A stretch of 51,772 nt of DNA from a virus (lineage: Duplodnaviria; Caudoviricetes), in the IMG/VR virus record IMGVR_UViG_3300044834_000093, positions 1 through 51,772 of that record; one strand, given 5' to 3'. The notes under the pieces are model-generated. The model did no database searches. It was not told the origin of the DNA and saw nothing but the letters and a program-made list of their open reading frames with translations. How positions within the stretch are numbered: the stretch's first letter is position 1; every line of letters begins with the position of its first letter. Position numbers and translations under genes: made by a program. Positions 1 through 51,772 of this stretch are shown in pieces.

Positions 1-345
1 CTATTTGAACTCCGGCACGGGATGCAGCCGGCAATCGTAACGACCAGCATTCGATCTCACGACAATCTGCGTGTTGTAGAACTCACCGGGTGACGCGGCC
101 CGCCGCAAGTTCTCCACCACTCCGGCCGGTACGGCGCAGTAATGATACGCCGTCGCCTTGGCACCAATCCAGAGGATTAGGTATTGCTCAGTCCTTGCGT
201 AGCACGAGCGCGTAAGAAATCCGCTCCCCGCGACCGGCTGGCAATCGAACTTATCCAATGAGATGCACTTGCCGTATTTGACGCAGACTGTTTCTGCCTC
301 GACTGCAAAGCTCGCCACCGCCCAAAAGGCAATTGCTGCGATCAT
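1..345 (-). CDS. Secreted KTSC-domain protein
   Basis: Signal peptide then S.FL...Y...L.L......YHYC.VP..V...L..A.S.G.FYN..I KTSC pattern; ATG 345 overlaps the upstream stop (ATGA). Confidence 0.7.
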   Translation of the reverse strand: MIAAIAFWAVASFAVEAETVCVKYGKCISLDKFDCQPVAGSGFLTRSCYARTEQYLILWIGAKATAYHYCAVPAGVVENLRRAASPGEFYNTQIVVRSNAGRYDCRLHPVPEFK

Positions 346-524
346 TCGCATTCGATTTCCATGGTCCCCGGCCACACAAACGGGTCGGAACAGATATTTT
401 CGCCGTCCTTTGTAACTTCCCACCCCAGAAGGAATCCTGGCTCTCCGACCATCCGTGCAGAAAAAGTCGTAACCGCAGAGCCCAGTAGGAGTCCGACAGC
501 GAGCCCAAGCGAAAACCTAGACAT
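342..524 (-). CDS. Small exported hypothetical protein
   Basis: GGGGA RBS, signal-like N-terminus, two Cys, coupled to the KTSC gene. Confidence 0.65.
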   Translation of the reverse strand: MSRFSLGLAVGLLLGSAVTTFSARMVGEPGFLLGWEVTKDGENICSDPFVWPGTMEIECE

Positions 525-562
525 AAGTCCCCCAACGTAGTCTTAGAAAAGAGAGTGTCGTC

Positions 563-591
563 TTCCCAAGTCAGCCAAGATTATTTATATT
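563..591 (+). promoter_or_regulatory. Putative sigma70 promoter
   Basis: TTCCCA-17 bp-TATATT, predicted +1 near 598. Confidence 0.45.
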
Positions 592-597
592 CCCATT

Positions 598-808
598 GGT
601 GCGGGGCGTGTCCTGACCGCGTACTTGGGGCTTCGGCCCCTCCGCCTCAGGCTGTACACGTTCTGCACTGCGGCGGCGCGCTGTGTTCTAATCCGGCGTC
701 ACGTACTTGAGGCGCAAGCTTCTTCGTGCCCGAGATCAGCGCGTCGCTCCCTACCCTGCTAGGATTACAGGTGATCACTTCGCGCCGGCGTTCTGCCGCC
801 CCCGCGCA
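598..808 (+). ncRNA. Candidate structured non-coding RNA, family unknown
   Basis: 5'/3' closing stem, C(UUCG)G hairpin 627-640, stems 643-649/708-714 and 734-738/772-776, upstream promoter, no credible ORF. Confidence 0.45.
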
Positions 809-830
809 AGGTCTAGCATATTTGGGTACG

Positions 831-2585
831 CTAACCGAGTTTCACCATTTTTGGATTGAAGTGAAGAATCCCTTTTTCTTGCTTCGACCCAACGAACGTA
901 AAAGGCAACTCTGGTTGCTCAGCATCAGGCCGGGGCATTGGCGACGGTCGGCGTCGCCGATTTGAGAACGCTGCTGAGGGGAGATGTTCGAGCGGCGGCA
1001 AAATGGGCGGGTTCTGCCCTTTGAACCAATCCTCGATAGAAACAATCTGCAATTTTGGCATATCGCCGTGAACAACTTTCGCGTTTCCTTCACGGATAGC
1101 CTCGGTTCTCATTTTTTCCGTCGGCTTGTGCAAACAAATAAAGAGTCCCATTTCGGCTTTTTCAGTGTCGAGAACATGGGCAAATGCGCGTATGTCGTCC
1201 AATTCTATTTTTCCGCCTTTTACGGAAGTCAGCATTCGCCCCCACGGCCGCCCAGGTCCGTTCGGGAAGAATAATTCACCGTCAATCCCTCTGTCCGCAC
1301 CCTTCTTTCCACGCTCCCGGAGCGCATGGGGATTGAACAGATAATTGGCCCACCACTGGAATTGGTACTTGTCCCTCTCTGCTAGCTTCACGGCAGAAGC
1401 AAAATCGCGTGGCAGCAACTCGATTTCATAATCAACATGGCGTCCGCGCTTCTCAGCGAGATCAGCAAGGCGGCCCTCAATAACCTTTACTGCATGAACA
1501 GCAATATCAATCCCAATCCATTGACGGTCTGCTTGTTCGGCAGCCTCAACGGTTGTTCCGCAGCCGCAAAATGGATCCAAAACAACTTGGCCAGGATTCG
1601 ATGAAGCGCGGATTATTCGGTCTAATAATGCCAATGGCTTCTGTGTTGGATAGCCGGTCCGCTCCTGCGCCTGAGAGTTCAGTGGTGAAATATCGAGGAT
1701 TAGGTCTTGTAATGCTAACCCCTTGCCTAGCACGCGCTTAAACCGAGGGAAGCCGCCGCTGCGGGGCCAGTGAATTAGGCCATGCTGATCGAGAACGTCT
1801 AATTTGTGAGTAGTCGAAAGCTTGGCTCCGGCTTCCTCTCCGATTGCCTCAAACACAGCTTTATTGCTTATCTTCCAATGTACACCTTTGTCAGTCGGGT
1901 TGAATCCTTTCCATGGGGCTCCTGAATCTCCGCGACGGGTGCCCGGCCCCGTAAGATTGTCGTCAGCCCATCGCCGTCCGCTCTCATCGACGTGCTTGTA
2001 TCGTGCTTTGTAGCTGTCGTCATACTCCGTAAATAGCTTGTTCCAAACGTAATCGTTCGTTTTGGAATAGAACAAAATGCAATCGTGCACGTCTGCCCAC
2101 CGCTGCGCGGCTGAATGGGCGCTAGTGCGTTTCCAGATCACTTCGCTTTTGAATGCGCCGGGGCCGAAAACTCCGTCCAATACCACTTTCAGGTAGTGGC
2201 TGGCGGTGGGGTCGCAATGCAGATAAAGTGAGCCGGTAGGCTTCAGTTTGCGATGCAACTCCCTCAATCGGACGGCCATCATCACCAAATAGGCCATCAT
2301 GTCGCTTTCCTTGAGCGCAGTTTTTAGTGCGTCAATTAAGCGAGCGGTGTTGCCACCGAAACCCATCAGTTCACGGTAGGATTCCTGCGCGTCTTCTAAC
2401 CAAGACCAACTATCCCGAAACGCCTGGGCTTGCGCGGACTCAGCATCGCTCTTTCGGCTTTCAAATAATACGTTGTATCCGGCCTGACTGTTGAATGGCG
2501 GATCGAGATAAATCAGATCAACGCTCTCGTCTGGGATGTATTCGCGTAAAATATCGAGATTGTCGCCGAAATACAGCTTATTCAT
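831..2585 (-). CDS. Site-specific DNA amino-methyltransferase (N6/N4 family, beta order) with C-terminal Mrr-like restriction endonuclease domain
   Basis: DLIYLDPPF, YPTQKP and VLDPFCGCGTT motifs; C-terminal ADRGIDG...SVKGG...AEMGLFI PD-(D/E)XK-like region. Confidence 0.9.
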   Translation of the reverse strand: MNKLYFGDNLDILREYIPDESVDLIYLDPPFNSQAGYNVLFESRKSDAESAQAQAFRDSWSWLEDAQESYRELMGFGGNTARLIDALKTALKESDMMAYLVMMAVRLRELHRKLKPTGSLYLHCDPTASHYLKVVLDGVFGPGAFKSEVIWKRTSAHSAAQRWADVHDCILFYSKTNDYVWNKLFTEYDDSYKARYKHVDESGRRWADDNLTGPGTRRGDSGAPWKGFNPTDKGVHWKISNKAVFEAIGEEAGAKLSTTHKLDVLDQHGLIHWPRSGGFPRFKRVLGKGLALQDLILDISPLNSQAQERTGYPTQKPLALLDRIIRASSNPGQVVLDPFCGCGTTVEAAEQADRQWIGIDIAVHAVKVIEGRLADLAEKRGRHVDYEIELLPRDFASAVKLAERDKYQFQWWANYLFNPHALRERGKKGADRGIDGELFFPNGPGRPWGRMLTSVKGGKIELDDIRAFAHVLDTEKAEMGLFICLHKPTEKMRTEAIREGNAKVVHGDMPKLQIVSIEDWFKGQNPPILPPLEHLPSAAFSNRRRRPSPMPRPDAEQPELPFTFVGSKQEKGILHFNPKMVKLG

Positions 2586-2685
2586 AACACAGCCCCCCGC
2601 ACCCACGCCGCACAAGTATGCGGGTGGGTTGCTTTAAATCGGTTCTTTCCGACTAAAGTAACTTCCGGTTATGGTTGCGGGAACG

Positions 2686-2829
2686 TTAAGGAGTTGTGGA
2701 AGTCGCGTCTGTTTTGTTCTGAGCTGAGGCCGGGAGCGACACGGCGGAGAACGCCATTACCACAACGTAGGCGGCGATGACAGCGACCAATATCGCCAAA
2801 ATTGCTACGGTGCGGATTGGTTCGTTCAT
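2686..2829 (-). CDS. 47-aa single-TM/signal-peptide protein (below ORF-track cutoff)
   Basis: MNEPIRTVAILAILVAVIAAYVVVMAFSAVSLPASAQNKTDATSTTP, starting 8 bp after the DUF2335 stop. Confidence 0.45.
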   Translation of the reverse strand: MNEPIRTVAILAILVAVIAAYVVVMAFSAVSLPASAQNKTDATSTTP

Positions 2830-2836
2830 AGACCGA

Positions 2837-3358
2837 TCATTTGCCTTTCCAGGCATTTACAAAGATGCCGATGATGCCAGCTCCGCCGATACCAGCGACG
2901 GCCAGCGCCGCACCTTCGTGTTCGCGTTCGGCCAAAAGGAAAACGATTGCTAAGATGACCAACAGGGACAGAAATCCGGCCGCGAGGCTGGCGAGGCGGT
3001 ATCGTGCGTCAGACTTATTCTTGAAGATGTGTGAGTCGATAAACGCGTCCTGATCCTTCTCCGCCATCTTAAGAAGGCGACCGAAAGACCCGCGCTCTAT
3101 ATCTTCGTACCCCTGAACGGTTTCGACCGAAGGCAGCGGGCCAGAATGAATCTTTGAAACTGTAACAGCAAAAGACTGAACTTTGGATTTGAGGCGTTCA
3201 AGAACCTGCTGCTGTTGCGCCTTCGGCAGAATGTCTTTCACTGCATCGACAATTGACTTGTCGAAGGCTTTGTCGAGCTCCGGCGGTATAACGAGTTGAT
3301 TCTCGTTAAGAGGCGCGGGCCTCTTTCCGTCTGTCGGTTTCAGATCTGGTGGCGGCAC
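2837..3358 (-). CDS. DUF2335 family membrane protein
   Basis: HSGPLPS.E....YE.I..G...R...MAEK.Q motif followed by two TM helices. Confidence 0.85.
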   Translation of the reverse strand: MPPPDLKPTDGKRPAPLNENQLVIPPELDKAFDKSIVDAVKDILPKAQQQQVLERLKSKVQSFAVTVSKIHSGPLPSVETVQGYEDIERGSFGRLLKMAEKDQDAFIDSHIFKNKSDARYRLASLAAGFLSLLVILAIVFLLAEREHEGAALAVAGIGGAGIIGIFVNAWKGK

Positions 3359-3518
3359 GATTCAGCGCCTTGCCTACGTTGTTCCAAGCTGCCGTCACCG
3401 TATCACCACGCTTCAGCGCATGCACCTGCCCGCCATGCGCAAGCATGCCAATACCTGACAGGCCAAGGGCGAAAGCCTTGACGTGAAAATGCGCTTTCTT
3501 GGAATAGCGTCTTGCCAT
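3306..3518 (-). CDS. Small protein upstream of DUF2335
   Basis: Overlaps the DUF2335 start; D....AW..VG..L pattern. Confidence 0.6.
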   Translation of the reverse strand: MARRYSKKAHFHVKAFALGLSGIGMLAHGGQVHALKRGDTVTAAWNNVGKALNRAATRSETDRRKEARAS

Positions 3519-8158: not shown

Positions 8159-8497
8159 ATGGGTGTCAGGCGTTATTCCAGGAATCCGATTCAGCGCAGG
8201 CGCGAGCAGGCCCTCGATCATCTCCAATGGCGCTGCGGCCTTACCTTCGTCGGCCAGTATGAAAAGCCACCGACCATCGGGGAATTGCTCGATGCCGGCG
8301 TGCTAACGGCGGTGTGGACCTGCCGGAACACGGCCGGCGGGTGCTGGCGTCACAGCGAGCCTTTCTCGCTGTCCCGATTCGGACGTGACGCCTGGGTCCA
8401 TAAGCTGCGCAAGCATTTCGTGTGCAGCGAGTGCGGCACCGGGTATCCCCGGCTCCGGCTCGAGCTCCGGGGGATAGCGCCCGCGACTGGACCGTGA
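8159..8497 (+). CDS. Zinc-ribbon hypothetical protein
   Basis: C-x6-C-x2-H and F.CSECG; start uncertain (8129 or 8159). Confidence 0.6.
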   Translation: MGVRRYSRNPIQRRREQALDHLQWRCGLTFVGQYEKPPTIGELLDAGVLTAVWTCRNTAGGCWRHSEPFSLSRFGRDAWVHKLRKHFVCSECGTGYPRLRLELRGIAPATGP

Positions 8498-8601: not shown

Positions 8602-8675
8602 TGGGGAATAGTTCAACGGTAGAACATCGGACTCTGACTCCGAGAATCTTGGTTCGAATCCAGGTTCCCCAGCCA
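8602..8675 (+). tRNA. tRNA-Gln, anticodon CTG
   Basis: Acceptor TGGGGAA/TTCCCCA, anticodon arm TCGGA-ctCTGac-TCCGA, T-loop GGTTCGAATCC, encoded CCA. Confidence 0.97.
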
Positions 8676-10336: not shown

Positions 10337-10698
10337 CCCCACTGGAACAGGTCAAGATACTGGCTGATGCGTTGCGACAGATCGGAGCTATCGCGGTCGA
10401 GACGGGCGCCGACGCAATGCCCGCGCTTCTGGAAGCCCAGCGGATAGCGGACGAGGGGTTGGAACGGGCGGGTATGCAGGTGGCGGAAGGGATGATGATG
10501 AACTGGAAACCAATAGAAACGGCGCCCAAAAACGGAACAGTTATCCTAGGCTGCCAGGGAAACGGAGACGACTATCAGGTTTTTGAAATGGTGTGGGGCG
10601 ATTGGAACGGGGGTATAGAATGGCGCGATCCACGGTACGACGGCGCTTACACGCCGACGTATTGGCAACCAAGACCTGAGCCACCAACGAACAAATAA
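10333..10698 (+). CDS. Fusion of 51-aa module with a DUF551-like domain
   Basis: WKPIETAPK.G..IL and PT.W.P.P.PP motifs. Confidence 0.75.
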   Translation: MTPLEQVKILADALRQIGAIAVETGADAMPALLEAQRIADEGLERAGMQVAEGMMMNWKPIETAPKNGTVILGCQGNGDDYQVFEMVWGDWNGGIEWRDPRYDGAYTPTYWQPRPEPPTNK

Positions 10699-10790
10699 AA
10701 AAGGCCCCGCCGTTTCCAGCGGAGCCTTAAGTTCGTGGCTTGCACCACGGGGAGGCTCGGCCCGAACAATGACGGACAGCCGAGATTGGA
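10697..10790 (-). ncRNA. Candidate suhB/MmgR-like small RNA ending in an intrinsic terminator
   Basis: Minus strand: hairpin, CCTCCCC, hairpin, AACTT, GC-rich stem, T6. Confidence 0.4.
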
Positions 10791-12345: not shown

Positions 12346-12888
12346 CTATCCCTCTTTCTTTCTTAGAGCATTGATTGCAAGCGATCCGGTGGCGATCAAA
12401 AACATAAGCCCAGCAACAATCCACCCAATGAGATCACCGATCCCCGCCCCACGGCCGCCGGTTTCCCACCGGAACTGTTCCTGCTTTGCCATGCGCTCGG
12501 ATAGGTCGGTCTTGACCTCGCGGAGCTGGGTGGCGAGCAGCAGGGACTTTTCGTCGACGCTGGCCTTCAGGATACGGGCTAGTTCAAGGTCGAAAAGCTG
12601 CTTTTGCTGTGCTAGCTCGTTGATGCGGCGGGTCTCGGCCTCGCGGATTGCACTGTGCAGGCGCGTTTCGGCTTCCCGCGCGGCGTTCTGAAACTTGGCC
12701 TCCGCAGATCGCAGGTCGTCCTGCCGCTTCGCCTCTGCGGCATTGAGCGCTTTGACGTTCTCGGTCGGGTCAACGACGGCTCCACCGCGTCCATCAACGC
12801 CTACGCCAGGACGCTGTTCTTGTGACGATGCAGGAATAATCGTCAGCGCCAAAGACAGTAGAATCGTCCCCACCACATGCAGCTTCAT
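12346..12888 (-). CDS. Exported coiled-coil protein with C-terminal TM
   Basis: Signal peptide, DPTENV..L, coiled coil, GGRGAG linker, TM. Confidence 0.7.
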   Translation of the reverse strand: MKLHVVGTILLSLALTIIPASSQEQRPGVGVDGRGGAVVDPTENVKALNAAEAKRQDDLRSAEAKFQNAAREAETRLHSAIREAETRRINELAQQKQLFDLELARILKASVDEKSLLLATQLREVKTDLSERMAKQEQFRWETGGRGAGIGDLIGWIVAGLMFLIATGSLAINALRKKEG

Positions 12889-25399: not shown

Positions 25400-26089
25400 T
25401 CAGACTGCCTCAGCCTTACTGTTGGCGATTTCCGCCACGCGCTTAAGCAACGTATCCCGTGACGGGTTGCCCCTGATGCCTTCGCCTGTCTCGCGTCTGA
25501 TAAAGGCTTTCAGTTCAGTATCCGAGCATTCCTCAATGGATTTATCCCGTTGAGGCTCGACAACTGGTGGCTTGTCAGGAACAAAAGAAGTGATGTTGCT
25601 GTTGGTCAGCCGCTCAACCAGCTCAGTCAGCCGGGCCACTTCAGCCGACAGTTTTGATGTGCCAGCGCCTTCCTTGGCGCGCTCTATGTAGGCCCTGGCT
25701 TGCTCGCGCAATTCCCGCGCGCCAATGCCAAGTTTCGGTAGAGTGCTATCCGAGATACCGGCCAATTCTTCGACCGAGAGGATATTTTGCGCCTTCAGTT
25801 CAGCCACCCGGCTTTTATTCAGCTCGGCATTCGGCCAATGCTCCAACGGAGTGCCAGACGCAGCACGCTCCTCGCCACGCTTGAACGCGGCATAGATTTC
25901 AGGCCATCGGTGACGTTCCACGTCAGTAACCTCACCGACATAGCTAAATTGTTTGTCGCCAGGAATCTTGACCTCCACCATTTCCTTTTCATCGAAAATG
26001 GGACGGCCTTCCTGTTCGGATTTTGATTTGTTCTTTATCGCGTCCATGTGGAATCTTGGACGCGCAACGTCGCGATCAGGCGTTGACAT
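25400..26089 (-). CDS. Conserved phage head-region protein
   Basis: S..EGRPIF, SGTPLE.WP, HhH-like VEELA.ISD. Confidence 0.7.
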   Translation of the reverse strand: MSTPDRDVARPRFHMDAIKNKSKSEQEGRPIFDEKEMVEVKIPGDKQFSYVGEVTDVERHRWPEIYAAFKRGEERAASGTPLEHWPNAELNKSRVAELKAQNILSVEELAGISDSTLPKLGIGARELREQARAYIERAKEGAGTSKLSAEVARLTELVERLTNSNITSFVPDKPPVVEPQRDKSIEECSDTELKAFIRRETGEGIRGNPSRDTLLKRVAEIANSKAEAV

Positions 26090-27431
26090 TCATTGCTCCT
26101 GTGTTGGCAAATGTTGGCAAAATTTCCGTATTGACAAGGAAGGAGGATGAAATATCCCCCATCTCCTGCCATGACACGAAATACCCGAGTTCATCGAATT
26201 TCTTGCGCCACCACCCATGCGGGTGGACACTCAGATGCAAGCGCCGACCAATTAGAGCACCCATCTTGTCGTCCACCGTACTGATCTGGAAAAACACATT
26301 AGACGCCGAGCCCATGATATTTTTAATGACGGTATCCACCTGTTCGGGCGGGATATGCTCCATCACGTCAATGCAGTAACCAAACCTTTCCCGCAGTGGC
26401 ATCGGCTCGGATAGGTCAAGTTCTATGAAGGGGAGCGCGGCGGCTTCCTCGTCCCGGCAGTTCGGCGCAAAATCCACCAACAGCACATCATGCCCCTTGG
26501 CGCTGATGCGAGCTGCCGCACGGCCTGTGCCGCAGCCAAAATCCACAATGCGCCCGGTTGGCCGTAATTGATCAAGGATGGTATCGACTATGCGTTCAGC
26601 AGGCGAATCCTGCCGATAGGAGAGCATCGACCACATGCGGGAGTATTTTTCTTTTTCAGAAAGTGCGCCATCGGGAGCCCTGTACATATCGGGTAGTAGT
26701 CCGGTGCCGTGCATCTCGATCTTGCAGCCTTCCCCCTTGAGTAGGTTGGCAATCTGCATGAAGCGCTCGGCCTGCAATTTCATGGGCAGGGATGACACGT
26801 AATTCTTTCCGCAAAAGCTGACGTTCATGCAGGCCACTACATCATTCATCTTCTGGCGAACTACATGGCTTTCATTGTTTTCATGCGAAGAATCGTAGCC
26901 ATAGAAGTGCAGATCGCGGTATCCCACAACGAACGCAAGGATTGCCGAGACAAGCCCCACGCTGACGGCGGTACTCATCATTGAATATTCATGCGGGGCG
27001 AGAGCATCAATCTCCGCTTGCAGATCGTCGTCATCTACTTGTAATTGAAAGAGAGTGGCGTTCGGTCTTGCCTTGAAGCACCGTGGGTTTACCGTCGCGC
27101 CGAACAGATGCTGCTTTGCCATCCCGATAAGGCCTAGGCTTTCTTCCTTAGCGTCGATCATCACTTGGAAGTCGGGATGAAAGGAACGGGCGTTTAGAAA
27201 TTTTGCGGCGGCATTCAGGGCAAATATCTTAGCGCCCCGTCCATGCCTCTCGCGTATGTCCCCCACGTCATGCCTTATGCTTGGGCCTGAGCCGCAAAGC
27301 AGAGCAGTGCCACCATGCGCCGGTTCCTGCTTGATCCACCGCTGGCAGTTTTTCGAGTTCTGCCTGATGTGGGAAAAGAGTGTTTCCGGCGGCGTGTTGA
27401 TCAGCACCGAAACAGGGACGATCAAGGGCAT
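26076..27431 (-). CDS. DUF115/Maf(MptE-like) transferase domain fused to a class I SAM methyltransferase
   Basis: CGSGPSI, IFALNAA, PDFQVMID, GYRDLHFYGYDS; IVDFGCGTGR, CIDVMEHIP. Confidence 0.8.
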   Translation of the reverse strand: MPLIVPVSVLINTPPETLFSHIRQNSKNCQRWIKQEPAHGGTALLCGSGPSIRHDVGDIRERHGRGAKIFALNAAAKFLNARSFHPDFQVMIDAKEESLGLIGMAKQHLFGATVNPRCFKARPNATLFQLQVDDDDLQAEIDALAPHEYSMMSTAVSVGLVSAILAFVVGYRDLHFYGYDSSHENNESHVVRQKMNDVVACMNVSFCGKNYVSSLPMKLQAERFMQIANLLKGEGCKIEMHGTGLLPDMYRAPDGALSEKEKYSRMWSMLSYRQDSPAERIVDTILDQLRPTGRIVDFGCGTGRAAARISAKGHDVLLVDFAPNCRDEEAAALPFIELDLSEPMPLRERFGYCIDVMEHIPPEQVDTVIKNIMGSASNVFFQISTVDDKMGALIGRRLHLSVHPHGWWRKKFDELGYFVSWQEMGDISSSFLVNTEILPTFANTGAMNVNA

Positions 27432-27490
27432 GGTCGTGCCCTCATTACGATAGCGAATGTGCAGATCGCCCATACAGTCTCCTTGAATGT

Positions 27491-35803: not shown

Positions 35804-36576
35804 GCGGTACGTTGAAGAAATCCCGGAATGCTTAGATCGATTTCCTCTTTTGGCTTCCGCTTTGCCGCCAGCACGGCGTCGAGCTTAGCCCGCGCTTCCT
35901 TGTCGAAGGCCTGCGGCGCTTCAATAGGAGACGGCGTTTCGTTTGCCACCAGCAAGTTTGCGCAATCTGCGTATGGTTGCTCTGCGGCTTGTTCCGTCTC
36001 CGGCTGGCGAGCGAGCGCGCCCGTAGGGAGCGCCGTAGCGAGTAAGCCAGCCGTGTTTGTTTGCTCCTGTGGCTTTTCCACAGGAGGGGGTCGCGCGGCT
36101 TCTTGCTCAGAAGAAGTTATCTTTCTTATGTGATTGGTTCCCGGTAGCTTCGTTTTCGCTTGCGATCTCGCTTCGTGGTTTGCTTCGATCTCGCTTTGCG
36201 GCTCGCTTCGATCTCGCTTCGATCTCGCTTCGTCTTGCCCCCGTTTTATCGCCCGTGAAATGCCAGACCGGACTCCGCCGTTACGGCCAGCCAAGGTGCG
36301 CTGCATGACGGCGCGCTCCGTCTTCTCACGTTCTGCGTCAATCCGCTTATGAGTGCCATCGTCCAGGAAGTAGGATTCAACCTCCGATTTGATTGTCTGC
36401 CACCGCTTTAGTGGAACGCGGGCAATCGTGGCGCGCCCAGGGGCACCGTCAGGCAGCTTACCGTGCTGCCAGCAGTGCAGGATGAGCAAGAGGTATGCCC
36501 CATGTTGTTCTGTGGTGAGGTGTCCAGTGTCGCGGAGATAGTCCCCCGCATAGAACGGCATCCAGGCGCGGCTCAT
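35800..36576 (-). CDS. DUF1376 (YdaU) replication initiator
   Basis: WMPFYAGDYLRDTGHLTTEQHGAYLLLI signature. Confidence 0.9.
   Translation of the reverse strand: MSRAWMPFYAGDYLRDTGHLTTEQHGAYLLLILHCWQHGKLPDGAPGRATIARVPLKRWQTIKSEVESYFLDDGTHKRIDAEREKTERAVMQRTLAGRNGGVRSGISRAIKRGQDEARSKRDRSEPQSEIEANHEARSQAKTKLPGTNHIRKITSSEQEAARPPPVEKPQEQTNTAGLLATALPTGALARQPETEQAAEQPYADCANLLVANETPSPIEAPQAFDKEARAKLDAVLAAKRKPKEEIDLSIPGFLQRTA
36151..36232. repeat. Iteron array, probable replication origin
   Basis: CGATCTCGCTT at 36163, 36186, 36209 and 36220 plus degenerate copies inside the initiator gene. Confidence 0.8.
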
Positions 36577-50447: not shown

Positions 50448-50751
50448 AGATGAGCAAGGTCCGGTGAAGAAAAGTTTGTCAACTATCGGCATCGCGCCTC
50501 GGCTCCTGACGCGGGAGCAAGCGGCAGCCTATTGTCAAGTCTCGACCGAGATTTTTATTGCTCGCTGCCCGGTACGCCCTGTGAAGATGGGGGAAACAGT
50601 GCGTTCACACCGATGGGACATCAAAGAACTGGACCGATGGCTTGACAGCCTCTCCGGCGAAGCCCCGACAATCGCCTCGAACGGTCAACAGTGGATCGAT
50701 CGGCTCGGGGGAACTAATGAGGGTGGTCGTGCGCGGCGTGAAACAGTATAG
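50443..50751 (+). CDS. xis: Excisionase-like HTH protein
   Basis: PRLLTREQAAAYC..S...F and RWD..ELD.W.D, overlapping the integrase start. Confidence 0.75.
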   Translation: MADEQGPVKKSLSTIGIAPRLLTREQAAAYCQVSTEIFIARCPVRPVKMGETVRSHRWDIKELDRWLDSLSGEAPTIASNGQQWIDRLGGTNEGGRARRETV

Positions 50752-51772
50752 GTCAAAAGGAAAGACCTATTGCTATCACCGGCTGACCGGCAAGCGCATT
50801 GCCGCCGCGCCAGGAACAGCAGAGTTTTTTGCCGAGATCGAAGGGCTGAACTCGGCAACAAAACTAATCCTGCCGCGCGCTGGCACCCTCGGAATGCTGC
50901 TCGGTAAATACCGAGCGAGCGTCAAATTTGCTGAGCTAGCGCCGCGCACGCAAGCCGACTATCGCCGGATCATGGATTGGCTGAAGCCGCTGGACACAAT
51001 GGCGCTCTCAATCATCACACCGCCGTTCGCCGCAGGGTTACGCGACAAGGCCAAGGCTGCACATAAATACCGTTTCGCCAATTACGTTCTGTCCGTGCTG
51101 TCGGCGGCGCTGAGCTGGGGTGCGGAGCATGGCCACATCGATACCAATACGATCAAGGGTCACGTCAAGAAAGCTCCACGACCCAAGGGCATGCCGCAGC
51201 GTAATCGTCCATGGACAACGGATGAGCGCAACACTGTTTTGCAAGAGGCACCGCTGCATCTGAAGGTGCCGGTGGCCATGATGCGATGGGCTGGACTGCG
51301 AACCGGCGATGCACTGATTGCGCCAAAATCATCCTTCGACGGAACAGCCATCGAAATCAGGACAGGCAAAACCGGCCAGCTCGTATGGCTCCCCTGCCCG
51401 GTTCCACTAAGGGCGGTCCTTAAGGCGGCTCTCACTAAGCATCCTAACGCGATCACGCTGGCGACGACATCTAGAGGGCGGCCTTGGACCGGCGGTGGCT
51501 TCCGGGCTTCTCTGGCGAAGTTCCTGGGGAAGCTGGTGGCGGCGGGGCGGATCGGGAAGGGGCTGTCACCGCACGGCCTACGACATTCCATGGCCGTCGA
51601 TTTGCGGGAACTAGGCTTTGATGAACGCACCATTGCCGACTTCCTCGGCCAATCTCAAATTGAAACGGCTCGCGGCTATGCTCGCGGTGCCGATCTACGA
51701 AAAAAGATGACGGCGACGGTGAAAAAGTTAGACATCAGCTTTAAATCTGCAAAGAAATCGGTAGCGGGTTAG
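50717..51772 (+). CDS. int: Tyrosine integrase
   Basis: GLR.GD, KT, HGLRH, LGQ (Gln at the second His position), catalytic Tyr in RGYAR; N-terminal arm-binding domain. Confidence 0.95.
   Translation: MRVVVRGVKQYRSKGKTYCYHRLTGKRIAAAPGTAEFFAEIEGLNSATKLILPRAGTLGMLLGKYRASVKFAELAPRTQADYRRIMDWLKPLDTMALSIITPPFAAGLRDKAKAAHKYRFANYVLSVLSAALSWGAEHGHIDTNTIKGHVKKAPRPKGMPQRNRPWTTDERNTVLQEAPLHLKVPVAMMRWAGLRTGDALIAPKSSFDGTAIEIRTGKTGQLVWLPCPVPLRAVLKAALTKHPNAITLATTSRGRPWTGGGFRASLAKFLGKLVAAGRIGKGLSPHGLRHSMAVDLRELGFDERTIADFLGQSQIETARGYARGADLRKKMTATVKKLDISFKSAKKSVAG

Follow-up and report, generated by a model that had tools for sequence, protein, structure and literature searches.

The 306-nt spacer at positions 525-830 of IMG/VR virus record IMGVR_UViG_3300044834_000093, a 51,772-bp provirus that was analysed over its whole length (hereafter the window), contains a duplicated hairpin element: two tandem, paralogous extended hairpins on the + strand (598-748), preceded by a promoter-like site. 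This element is real, it is strand-biased, and it has one true relative, in an otherwise unrelated metagenome contig. How should it be read? The explanation that we favour, with a probability of roughly 0.45, is that it encodes an orphan small non-coding RNA driven by its own promoter on the + strand; that the element is transcribed, and where its transcript would end, we infer. A first-pass annotation of the same stretch had proposed a prophage non-coding RNA spanning 598-808, closed end to end and possibly containing a pseudoknot. Of that proposal, a structured + strand RNA behind a promoter is the best-supported part, whereas the globally closed, pseudoknotted topology had to be given up. 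The competing explanations rank, from more to less likely, as a passive palindrome or 3'-end element, chance or convergence, a cis-acting element resembling put or sib, and a retron, a tRNA-like fragment or a ribozyme.

The two hairpins share one plan. An outer helix of 12-14 bp is followed, towards the tip, by a bulge or internal loop, the middle helix, a helix of 3-4 bp, the asymmetric loop and a 5-bp stem closed by a tetraloop. Hairpin A (598-669) folds at -41.1 kcal/mol (z -4.30), a value reached by none of 200 shuffled sequences, and hairpin B (672-748, folded as 670-750) at -39.7 kcal/mol (z -3.52), reached by 1 of 200. From base to tip, A consists of a 14-bp outer helix with 4 G-U pairs, CCUGA/UCAGG, GCG/CGC and a 5/2-nt internal loop, UACUU/UC, beneath the apex GGGGC-UUCG-GCCCC (627-640). 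Its counterpart B has a 12-bp outer helix with 2 G-U pairs, a 7-nt bulge (UGUUCUA), a middle helix, CACG/CGUG and the loop UACUU/UU, beneath the apex GAGGC-GCAA-GCUUC (709-722), the stem of which includes 1 more G-U pair. In both, the 5' strand of the asymmetric loop is thus UACUU and its 3' strand has 2 nt, and CGUACUU occurs in each. Pair probabilities are at least 0.98 in A and B except at terminal pairs, with a range of 0.85-1.0 in A. The kinship of the two is further visible in a direct repeat (CGTACTTGGGGC/CGTACTTGAGGC, spaced by 82 nt), in the common string CGTACTTG(G/A)GGC, and in the score of 66.7 bits that hairpin B receives from model R1, which was built from A, B and the relative.

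The excess stability has a direction. Over the whole of 598-808, the better-than-shuffled folding on which the first-pass proposal depended holds for the + strand (-97.8 kcal/mol, z -2.63, equalled by 1 of 200 shuffles) and for that strand only, the - strand giving z -0.75, a level reached by 47 of 200. On the - strand, A folds at -31.7 kcal/mol (z -2.71) and B at -28.9 kcal/mol (z -0.50), both being weaker than on the + strand because several of the + strand pairs are G-U. The tetraloops point the same way: the + strand carries C(UUCG)G in A and C(GCAA)G in B, and the UUCG and GNRA classes are extra-stable, whereas the - strand loops, CGAA and UUGC, belong to neither class. The element region is also richer in GC than the window (66% versus 56%), and the five open reading frames (ORFs) of 43-79 aa in the region, which were compared with PHROG only, have no match there, in keeping with the earlier statement that it holds no convincing ORF.

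The relative came from a pattern scan of metagenome sequence, which returned two matches, in contigs L173 and L174. The match in L173 forms no hairpin and was discarded as a chance one. In L174, positions 2999-3031 are identical to window positions 618-650, the apical part of A, at 32 of 33 bases, and they lie within a single-copy hairpin on the + strand (2980-3047, z -3.35) that has the same architecture as A. Its outer helix differs in sequence and is re-paired, its middle helix shows an A-U to G-C swap, and the asymmetric UACUU/UC loop is kept. Beyond the 21 positions that the search pattern fixed or restricted, L174 agrees with A at 4/4 loop bases, 4/4 R/Y choices and 7/8 flanking bases. 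When the three copies (A, B and L174) are aligned over 12 core pairs, 94.4% of the cells are paired, compared with 39-65% in slid controls, and RNAalifold independently predicts the same core. Compensatory changes, the check that the first-pass annotation had suggested, are present among these copies (both partners differ in 3 pairs, and in 1 a G-C is replaced by a G-U) and are statistically weak, as 18 of 500 shuffles reach this level.

A second line of evidence comes from what precedes the hairpins. The hexamers TTCCCA (563-568) and TATATT (586-591), which resemble -35 and -10 elements, are separated by 17 nt, within the 16-18 nt of a sigma-70-type promoter. This promoter-like site (563-591, + strand, 9/12 matches, predicted start at about G598), already spotted in the first pass, is the only promoter-scan match within 300-1200, where shuffled sequences give a mean of 0.4. 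The 12-mer formed by the -10-like hexamer and the next 6 nt, TATATTCCCATT (586-597), abuts the base of hairpin A, and in L174 the corresponding 12-mer, TAGAATCCCCTT (2968-2979), is identical to it at 9 of 12 positions in the same register, a match found at a single position among 12,026 in that contig. Both -10-like hexamers agree with TATAAT at 5/6 bases and lie 6 nt before the first paired base of the hairpin. Read on the - strand, the L174 12-mer contains no -10-like hexamer and is therefore unlike a - strand promoter. Upstream of the 12-mer and 3' of the hairpins, the window and L174 show no similarity.

Several observations weigh against a promoter-driven RNA, and they are best considered together with the explanations that they favour. 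The first is chance: a GC-rich spacer would fold well by accident, and the likeness of L174 would be convergence on the very stable GGGGC-UUCG-GCCCC hairpin. We regard this as unlikely. Hairpin A ranks 6th among 20,680 75-nt windows after correction for composition, and about 10 other places in the window hold hairpins of similar excess stability, so hairpin stability alone is not special. The likeness of A and B is modest, their local alignment score of 19 being reached by 47 of 2000 shuffles and by 36 of 2586 background windows. The covariation is drawn from three rows, two of which are paralogues. The descriptor 3 bp-TACTT-5 bp stem/4-nt loop-NN-3 bp, which retrieves only A, B and the L174 copy in 1.28 Mb, was designed post hoc, and its reversed-sequence control also gives 3 matches, none of them adjacent. 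Moreover, the pattern scan that found L174 also produced the plain chance match in L173, and the 20-nt core GGGGCTTCGGCCCCTCCGCC recurs in terminator-like hairpins between co-directional genes of viral contigs L239 and L240, so part of the likeness could be convergent. What chance does not readily deliver is the agreement of L174 with A outside the search pattern, in loop, R/Y choices and flanks and at 9 of the 12 bases before the hairpin, the retention of the UACUU/UC loop alongside a swapped pair and a re-paired outer helix, and two hairpins with the same unusual internal loop only 2 nt apart.

The second is that the hairpins act without a transcript of their own, either as a passive palindromic spacer of the kind represented by repetitive extragenic palindromic sequences and bacterial interspersed mosaic elements (REP/BIME) or by a mini miniature inverted-repeat transposable element (mini-MITE), or as 3'-end hairpins that stabilise or end the - strand message upstream of them (that of the methyltransferase in the window, that of vapBC in L174) and shield the next operon. 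This is the most serious competitor, though we would still call it less than likely. In both loci, the hairpin follows the 3' end of a - strand gene (the stop codon is 9 nt away for vapC in L174, and 82-230 nt away for the methyltransferase gene in the window) and is close to mobile DNA, at a prophage edge in one case and 55 nt from the end of an insertion sequence (IS) in the other; tandem copies are typical of such repeats, and in L240 the related core forms a hairpin that behaves like a terminator. The L174 copy, in addition, shows no strand bias (-38.6 kcal/mol on + and -38.3 on -). Folded as DNA, the strands of A (-19.7/-18.6 kcal/mol) and of B (-19.7/-17.9 kcal/mol) are nearly equal, which cuts both ways: the strand bias of these hairpins is therefore an RNA signal, and a palindrome acting at the DNA level is for the same reason also compatible with the data. 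In the opposite direction, a passive palindrome accounts poorly for - strand RNA folds of A and B that are 9-11 kcal/mol weaker (that of B no better than shuffles), for the lack of a U-run on either strand and for stable-class tetraloops on the + strand only, and it leaves the conserved, in-register -10-like hexamer unexplained.

Rarity in the collections searched would also set the element apart from multi-copy repeats. Beyond the window, L174 is the single homologous locus in all collections searched, which also tells against a functional RNA; the window itself holds just the two tandem copies, and no further one was found elsewhere in its 51.8 kb. A DNA search with 525-830 gave no match in phages and plasmids, scans of viral contigs with exact and degenerate patterns gave 0 matches, and none of 401 alphaproteobacterial genomes matched with up to 3 mismatches. 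A relaxed viral pattern retrieved 62 loci, all judged to be chance or coding; one group, from four related contigs, has a small AT-rich hairpin whose flanks show no likeness. In 401 genomes of the family of G001, a Xanthobacteraceae metagenome-assembled genome (MAG), matches of 20-35 nt occurred in 30 genomes (E 1e-4 to 1e-2), against about 4 expected if the E-values hold. None of them spans a hairpin, and since the 8 that were inspected lie in different ORFs, they are read as GC-rich noise. Model R1 recovered only A, B and the L174 copy in the sequence scanned, besides one match among 151 genomes (E 0.009) that was rejected as chance, lying inside a long ORF with a fold of z 0.06. The core hairpin string brought up no related literature.

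The L239 and L240 loci, which look identical to each other, were likewise not accepted as members of the family, each being a plain terminator-like hairpin followed by UUUGU. In L240 (1493-1522; on the - strand in L239), it reads CGGGCGG-UU-GGGGC-UUCG-GCCCC-U-CCGCCCG and then UUUGU, between two co-directional phage genes.

The remaining points against a promoter-driven RNA concern transcription itself. The promoter scan called no promoter in L174, because the -35 region there is poor; the scan for intrinsic terminators found no terminator-like site on either strand of 351-904, and none in L174 2700-3300; and a search of sequencing runs identified one DNA run containing the record (labelled soil metagenome and perhaps its source) and no RNA run.

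Could the element nevertheless belong to a known class of RNA? The candidates are a retron msr-msd, a tRNA- or tmRNA-like att fragment and a self-cleaving pseudoknotted ribozyme, all of which we consider very nearly negligible. The motifs that the first-pass annotation had listed are all in place on the + strand, as described or 1 nt off: GGTGCGGGGCG at 598 and CGCCCCCGC at 797-805 (formerly given as 798-806), GGGGCTTCGGCCCC at 627, CGCCTCA at 643 with TGAGGCG at 708, GTAC at 621, 654 and 703, the T-loop-like string GTTCTAATCC at 685, GATCA at 734 with TGATC at 772, and the pseudoknot stem strings CCTA (750), TAGG (760), CCTG (755) and CAGG (768). It is the fold drawn from them that fails. Positions 601-608 are able to pair with 797-805 (8 bp, 1-nt bulge), and such end-to-end inverted repeats, close to the edge of a provirus record, would suit a known class, as the a1/a2 repeats that close a retron msr-msd RNA do; the T-loop-like string would as well. 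However, the pair probabilities of this closing helix do not exceed 0.011, and forcing it costs 7.3 kcal/mol (-90.5 versus -97.8). The pairings CGCCTCA/TGAGGCG, GTAC/GTAC and GATCA/TGATC have a probability of 0, and forcing the first of them costs about 20 kcal/mol; complementarity between the 3' arm of hairpin A and the 5' arm of B, its paralogue, gives rise to long-range cross-pairings of this type. The proposed H-type pseudoknot (4+4 bp), with stem probabilities of 0.33 and 0.5, is without significance because such patterns are common, 48 of them occurring on the + strand of the window (0.93 per kb).

The suspected T-loop GTTCTAATCC (685-694) turns out to be the 7-nt bulge of hairpin B plus part of its stem, and neither ARAGORN nor the Rfam tRNA and tmRNA models find anything in 450-950. 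Nothing supports the idea of self-cleavage or of a pseudoknot, and no ribozyme family of Rfam matches within 450-950. More generally, the search of Rfam that had been advised links the element to no family: Rfam 15 models match the window only at the tRNA at 8602, and at E up to 10 the sole match within 450-950 is one of 19 nt and 13.7 bits to archaeal sR44 at 463-481, outside the element. As for a retron, a Pfam scan of 60 ORFs of the window, from which short and overlapping ORFs were left out, revealed no reverse transcriptase and no obvious RNA-partner gene. The 3' tail (749-830, + strand) reaches as far as the stop of the convergent gene. Within it are, at 750-771, the pseudoknot candidate, itself weak, and, at 782-806, a small hairpin rich in GC. 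The tail folds unremarkably: 750-830 gives z -1.69 on + and -1.21 on -, neither of them significant, and 778-826 gives z +0.37.

If a promoter-driven RNA is indeed made, is it tied to the genes beside it? The first-pass annotation had considered a partnership with the neighbouring methyltransferase-nuclease fusion or with the KTSC protein, and this idea finds no support: the element was not found at the loci of their relatives, and its sole homologue sits beside vapBC and an IS. It was found in 0 of 159 loci encoding relatives of the methyltransferase-nuclease, and a comparable downstream element in none of the 13 best foldable of these loci (a 14th being too short to fold). The 4 distant relatives of the KTSC protein in 401 genomes (28-39% identity) lie in loci with neither a blastn match to window positions 1-3500 nor a model match, and viral contigs contained no loci for the KTSC and 60-aa proteins. 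The 60-aa family has one distant relative in 401 genomes (in G040, L238 1495-1692), the start of which follows an integrase gene by 2 nt and whose locus contains no hairpins.

In L174, by comparison, 9 nt separate the end of the hairpin from the stop codon of a convergent gene that encodes a PIN-domain protein (VapC) with Phd/YefM as its partner. The inverted repeat of an rve-type IS is 55 nt away from the hairpin, and as this IS ends at about 2924, the hairpin is not part of it. The position of this copy beside vapBC and an IS implies that neither the methyltransferase and KTSC genes nor the small-ORF gene travel with the element. Because the promoter-plus-hairpin unit recurs in one unrelated metagenome contig, it is proposed that the unit may represent a small and rare family of RNAs, moving independently of the genes around it.

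The IS of L174 has features of its own. It is bounded by imperfect 32-nt inverted repeats (1612-1643 and 2893-2924, about 1.3 kb apart), adjoins vapBC and a UPF0047 gene, and contains a perfect 34-nt palindrome (2840-2873) between the start codon of the transposase (2779) and the right inverted repeat.

How might a promoter-driven RNA work? The first transcribed base would be about G598, 6-7 nt beyond the -10-like TATATT, and the first 150 nt would fold at once into hairpins A and B. The stop codon of the convergent gene is 82 nt from the hairpins in the window and 9 nt in L174, with no terminator before it in either locus, so that the transcript would continue, in antisense orientation, into the 3' end of the gene itself, which is methyltransferase/restriction-endonuclease-like in the window and vapC in L174. 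There it might damp the convergent gene by transcriptional interference or by RNA pairing, its 5' hairpins perhaps serving as stabilising or protein-binding handles. Since the RNA would be aimed at the 3' end of a convergent nuclease-type gene in both loci, a role in antisense control or interference like that of EcoRI Rna0 may be guessed at; as a brake on the convergent gene it is a guess made from two loci, with odds of about one in four if the RNA is real. A bolder version, which we treat as a long shot, holds that the -10 promoter and the CGUACUU hairpin form a minute, mobile gene for an RNA, which inserts itself facing the genes of potentially self-harming nucleases (the methyltransferase/restriction-endonuclease-like fusion in the window, the PIN toxin VapC in L174) and acts there as a 3'-end antisense brake or antitoxin, the hairpin being a handle for a host RNA-binding protein or RNase III.

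A different role at the RNA level would be that of a cis-acting element in a long + strand transcript, either an antiterminator similar to put or an RNase III site similar to lambda sib, reached by read-through from the integrase side of the circular phage. Two tandem stem-loops do begin at the predicted +1, and with the integrase gene on the + strand at the other end of the record (50642-51772), + strand read-through in the circular form would enter the region. Yet the next 3.4 kb on the + strand are antisense to - strand genes, which leaves no operon to antiterminate; two - strand genes separate the left end of the record from the hairpins, whereas sib directly follows att; and the L174 copy has no phage or integrase context. 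We therefore hold such a cis-acting role to be very doubtful.

The three genes that flank the spacer are all on the - strand. Convergent with the element lies a gene for a DNA methyltransferase with a C-terminal Mrr/restriction-endonuclease-like domain (831-2615; N6_N4_Mtase, E 9.6e-43; NA-iREase1, E 6.4e-08; Mrr_cat, E 3.8e-04; phrog_67), the nuclease-like domain of which finds its best match in an 'inactive' restriction endonuclease family. On the other side, divergent from the element, is a gene for a small protein of 60 aa (342-524; phrog_37095, E 2.4e-12 over the full length) whose start is 39 nt beyond the promoter-like block, and the stop codon of this ORF is overlapped by a gene for a KTSC-domain protein (1-351; PF13619, E 7.7e-07), the two making up a small-ORF/KTSC operon. 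The 60-aa protein looks like a small secreted or membrane 'moron' protein riding with integrases; a large protein collection holds a single homologue, 61% identical over 67% of the query. That collection places the window's own 60-aa protein on a contig of 64,926 nt, in which about 13 kb of DNA thus flank the record, perhaps belonging to the host and containing att sites. Because the portal protein is 36-47% identical to counterparts in Rhizobium, Bradyrhizobium and Brucella phages, and the closest relative of the methyltransferase (64%) comes from the Xanthobacteraceae MAG G001, the host is probably an alphaproteobacterium of the Hyphomicrobiales.

Some other features of the window deserve mention. 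Very stable hairpins also occur at 12476-12550 and 36036-36110 on the + strand and at 8318-8392 and 10693-10767 on the - strand, the last of which, with GGCUCCGCUGGAAACGGCGGGGCC at its end and a U-run after it, has the look of a classic terminator. A hairpin antisense to the last codons of the methyltransferase gene (846-892, + strand) folds at -14.1 kcal/mol (z -3.51, 0 of 200 shuffles as good) and has no U-run after it. Downstream of the lysis genes, inside the provirus record, is a tRNA-Gln (CTG) gene (8602-8675, + strand), which may be phage-borne or mark an integration site. In one ORF of the structural-gene block (26076-27473, - strand), an MptE-like domain (E 6.4e-12) is joined to a methyltransferase domain (E 1.4e-07), an unusual pairing in that place.

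What would be gained if the RNA were real? As it stands, the element is a reasonable, unproven and unsurprising candidate. A real RNA would represent a new small-RNA family in prophages of soil alphaproteobacteria, from which, to our knowledge, almost no phage RNAs have been characterised, and it would exemplify a module of promoter and hairpin whose transfer between mobile elements does not depend on protein genes.

Comparison with known systems helps to place it. REP/BIME elements are GC-rich imperfect palindromes of 20-40 nt in the spacers that follow genes, sometimes in tandem and often near mobile DNA, and they number tens to hundreds per genome. The present element resembles them in consisting of GC-rich imperfect palindromes, in its tandem arrangement, and in its location in a spacer after a gene and near mobile DNA, and it departs from them in the length of its hairpins (68-77 nt), in its asymmetric loop and RNA-type tetraloops, and in having been found three times in everything searched. 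With the terminator-like hairpin of L240, it has in common a GGGGC-UUCG-GCCCC apex extended by CCGCC pairing, amounting to 22 nt shared with the apex of A. However, the stem in L240 is symmetric, UUUGU comes after it and the genes on either side are co-directional, whereas A, B and the L174 hairpin have no U-run, carry the UACUU loop and have no gene upstream on their own strand.

Another parallel is offered by the put RNAs of phage HK022, two adjacent stem-loops at the start of phage transcripts that are more conserved in structure than in sequence, span about 70 nt and act on the downstream operon. Here, too, two adjacent stem-loops, better conserved between copies in structure than in sequence, stand at the predicted start of a transcript, but over about 150 nt and with no operon downstream on the + strand. 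DicF, AgvB and AsxR are RNAs of the Hfq type with a terminator hairpin and a U-tail, from which the present element differs by its two long 5' hairpins, its lack of a terminator and its lack of an Rfam match. In a wider sense, prophage small RNAs, such as the anti-sRNAs of pathogenic Escherichia coli, are described as short genes for non-coding RNAs, each led by a promoter of its own and situated in an accessory region of a prophage (PMC4104026, PMC12197685), and the element, as a short, promoter-led, non-coding candidate in such a region, would be at home among them.

A further parallel is Rna0 (ecoRIA) of the EcoRI restriction-modification system, described as a small antisense RNA (88 nt) whose reverse promoter lies at the 3' end of the nuclease gene; it lowers the expression of that gene and softens killing (PMC3141266). 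Unlike Rna0, which starts inside the gene, the element lies wholly in the spacer, any overlap with the gene following only from the missing terminator. The two have no sequence relation, and the candidate target in the window is a methyltransferase fusion. What they would share is the arrangement: in the element, too, a promoter-like site aims a structured RNA of short length at the 3' end of a gene, one of the methyltransferase/restriction-endonuclease-like type in the window and vapC in L174. Should the element act on either gene, antisense control of restriction-modification and toxin genes, familiar from EcoRI, would extend to new contexts.

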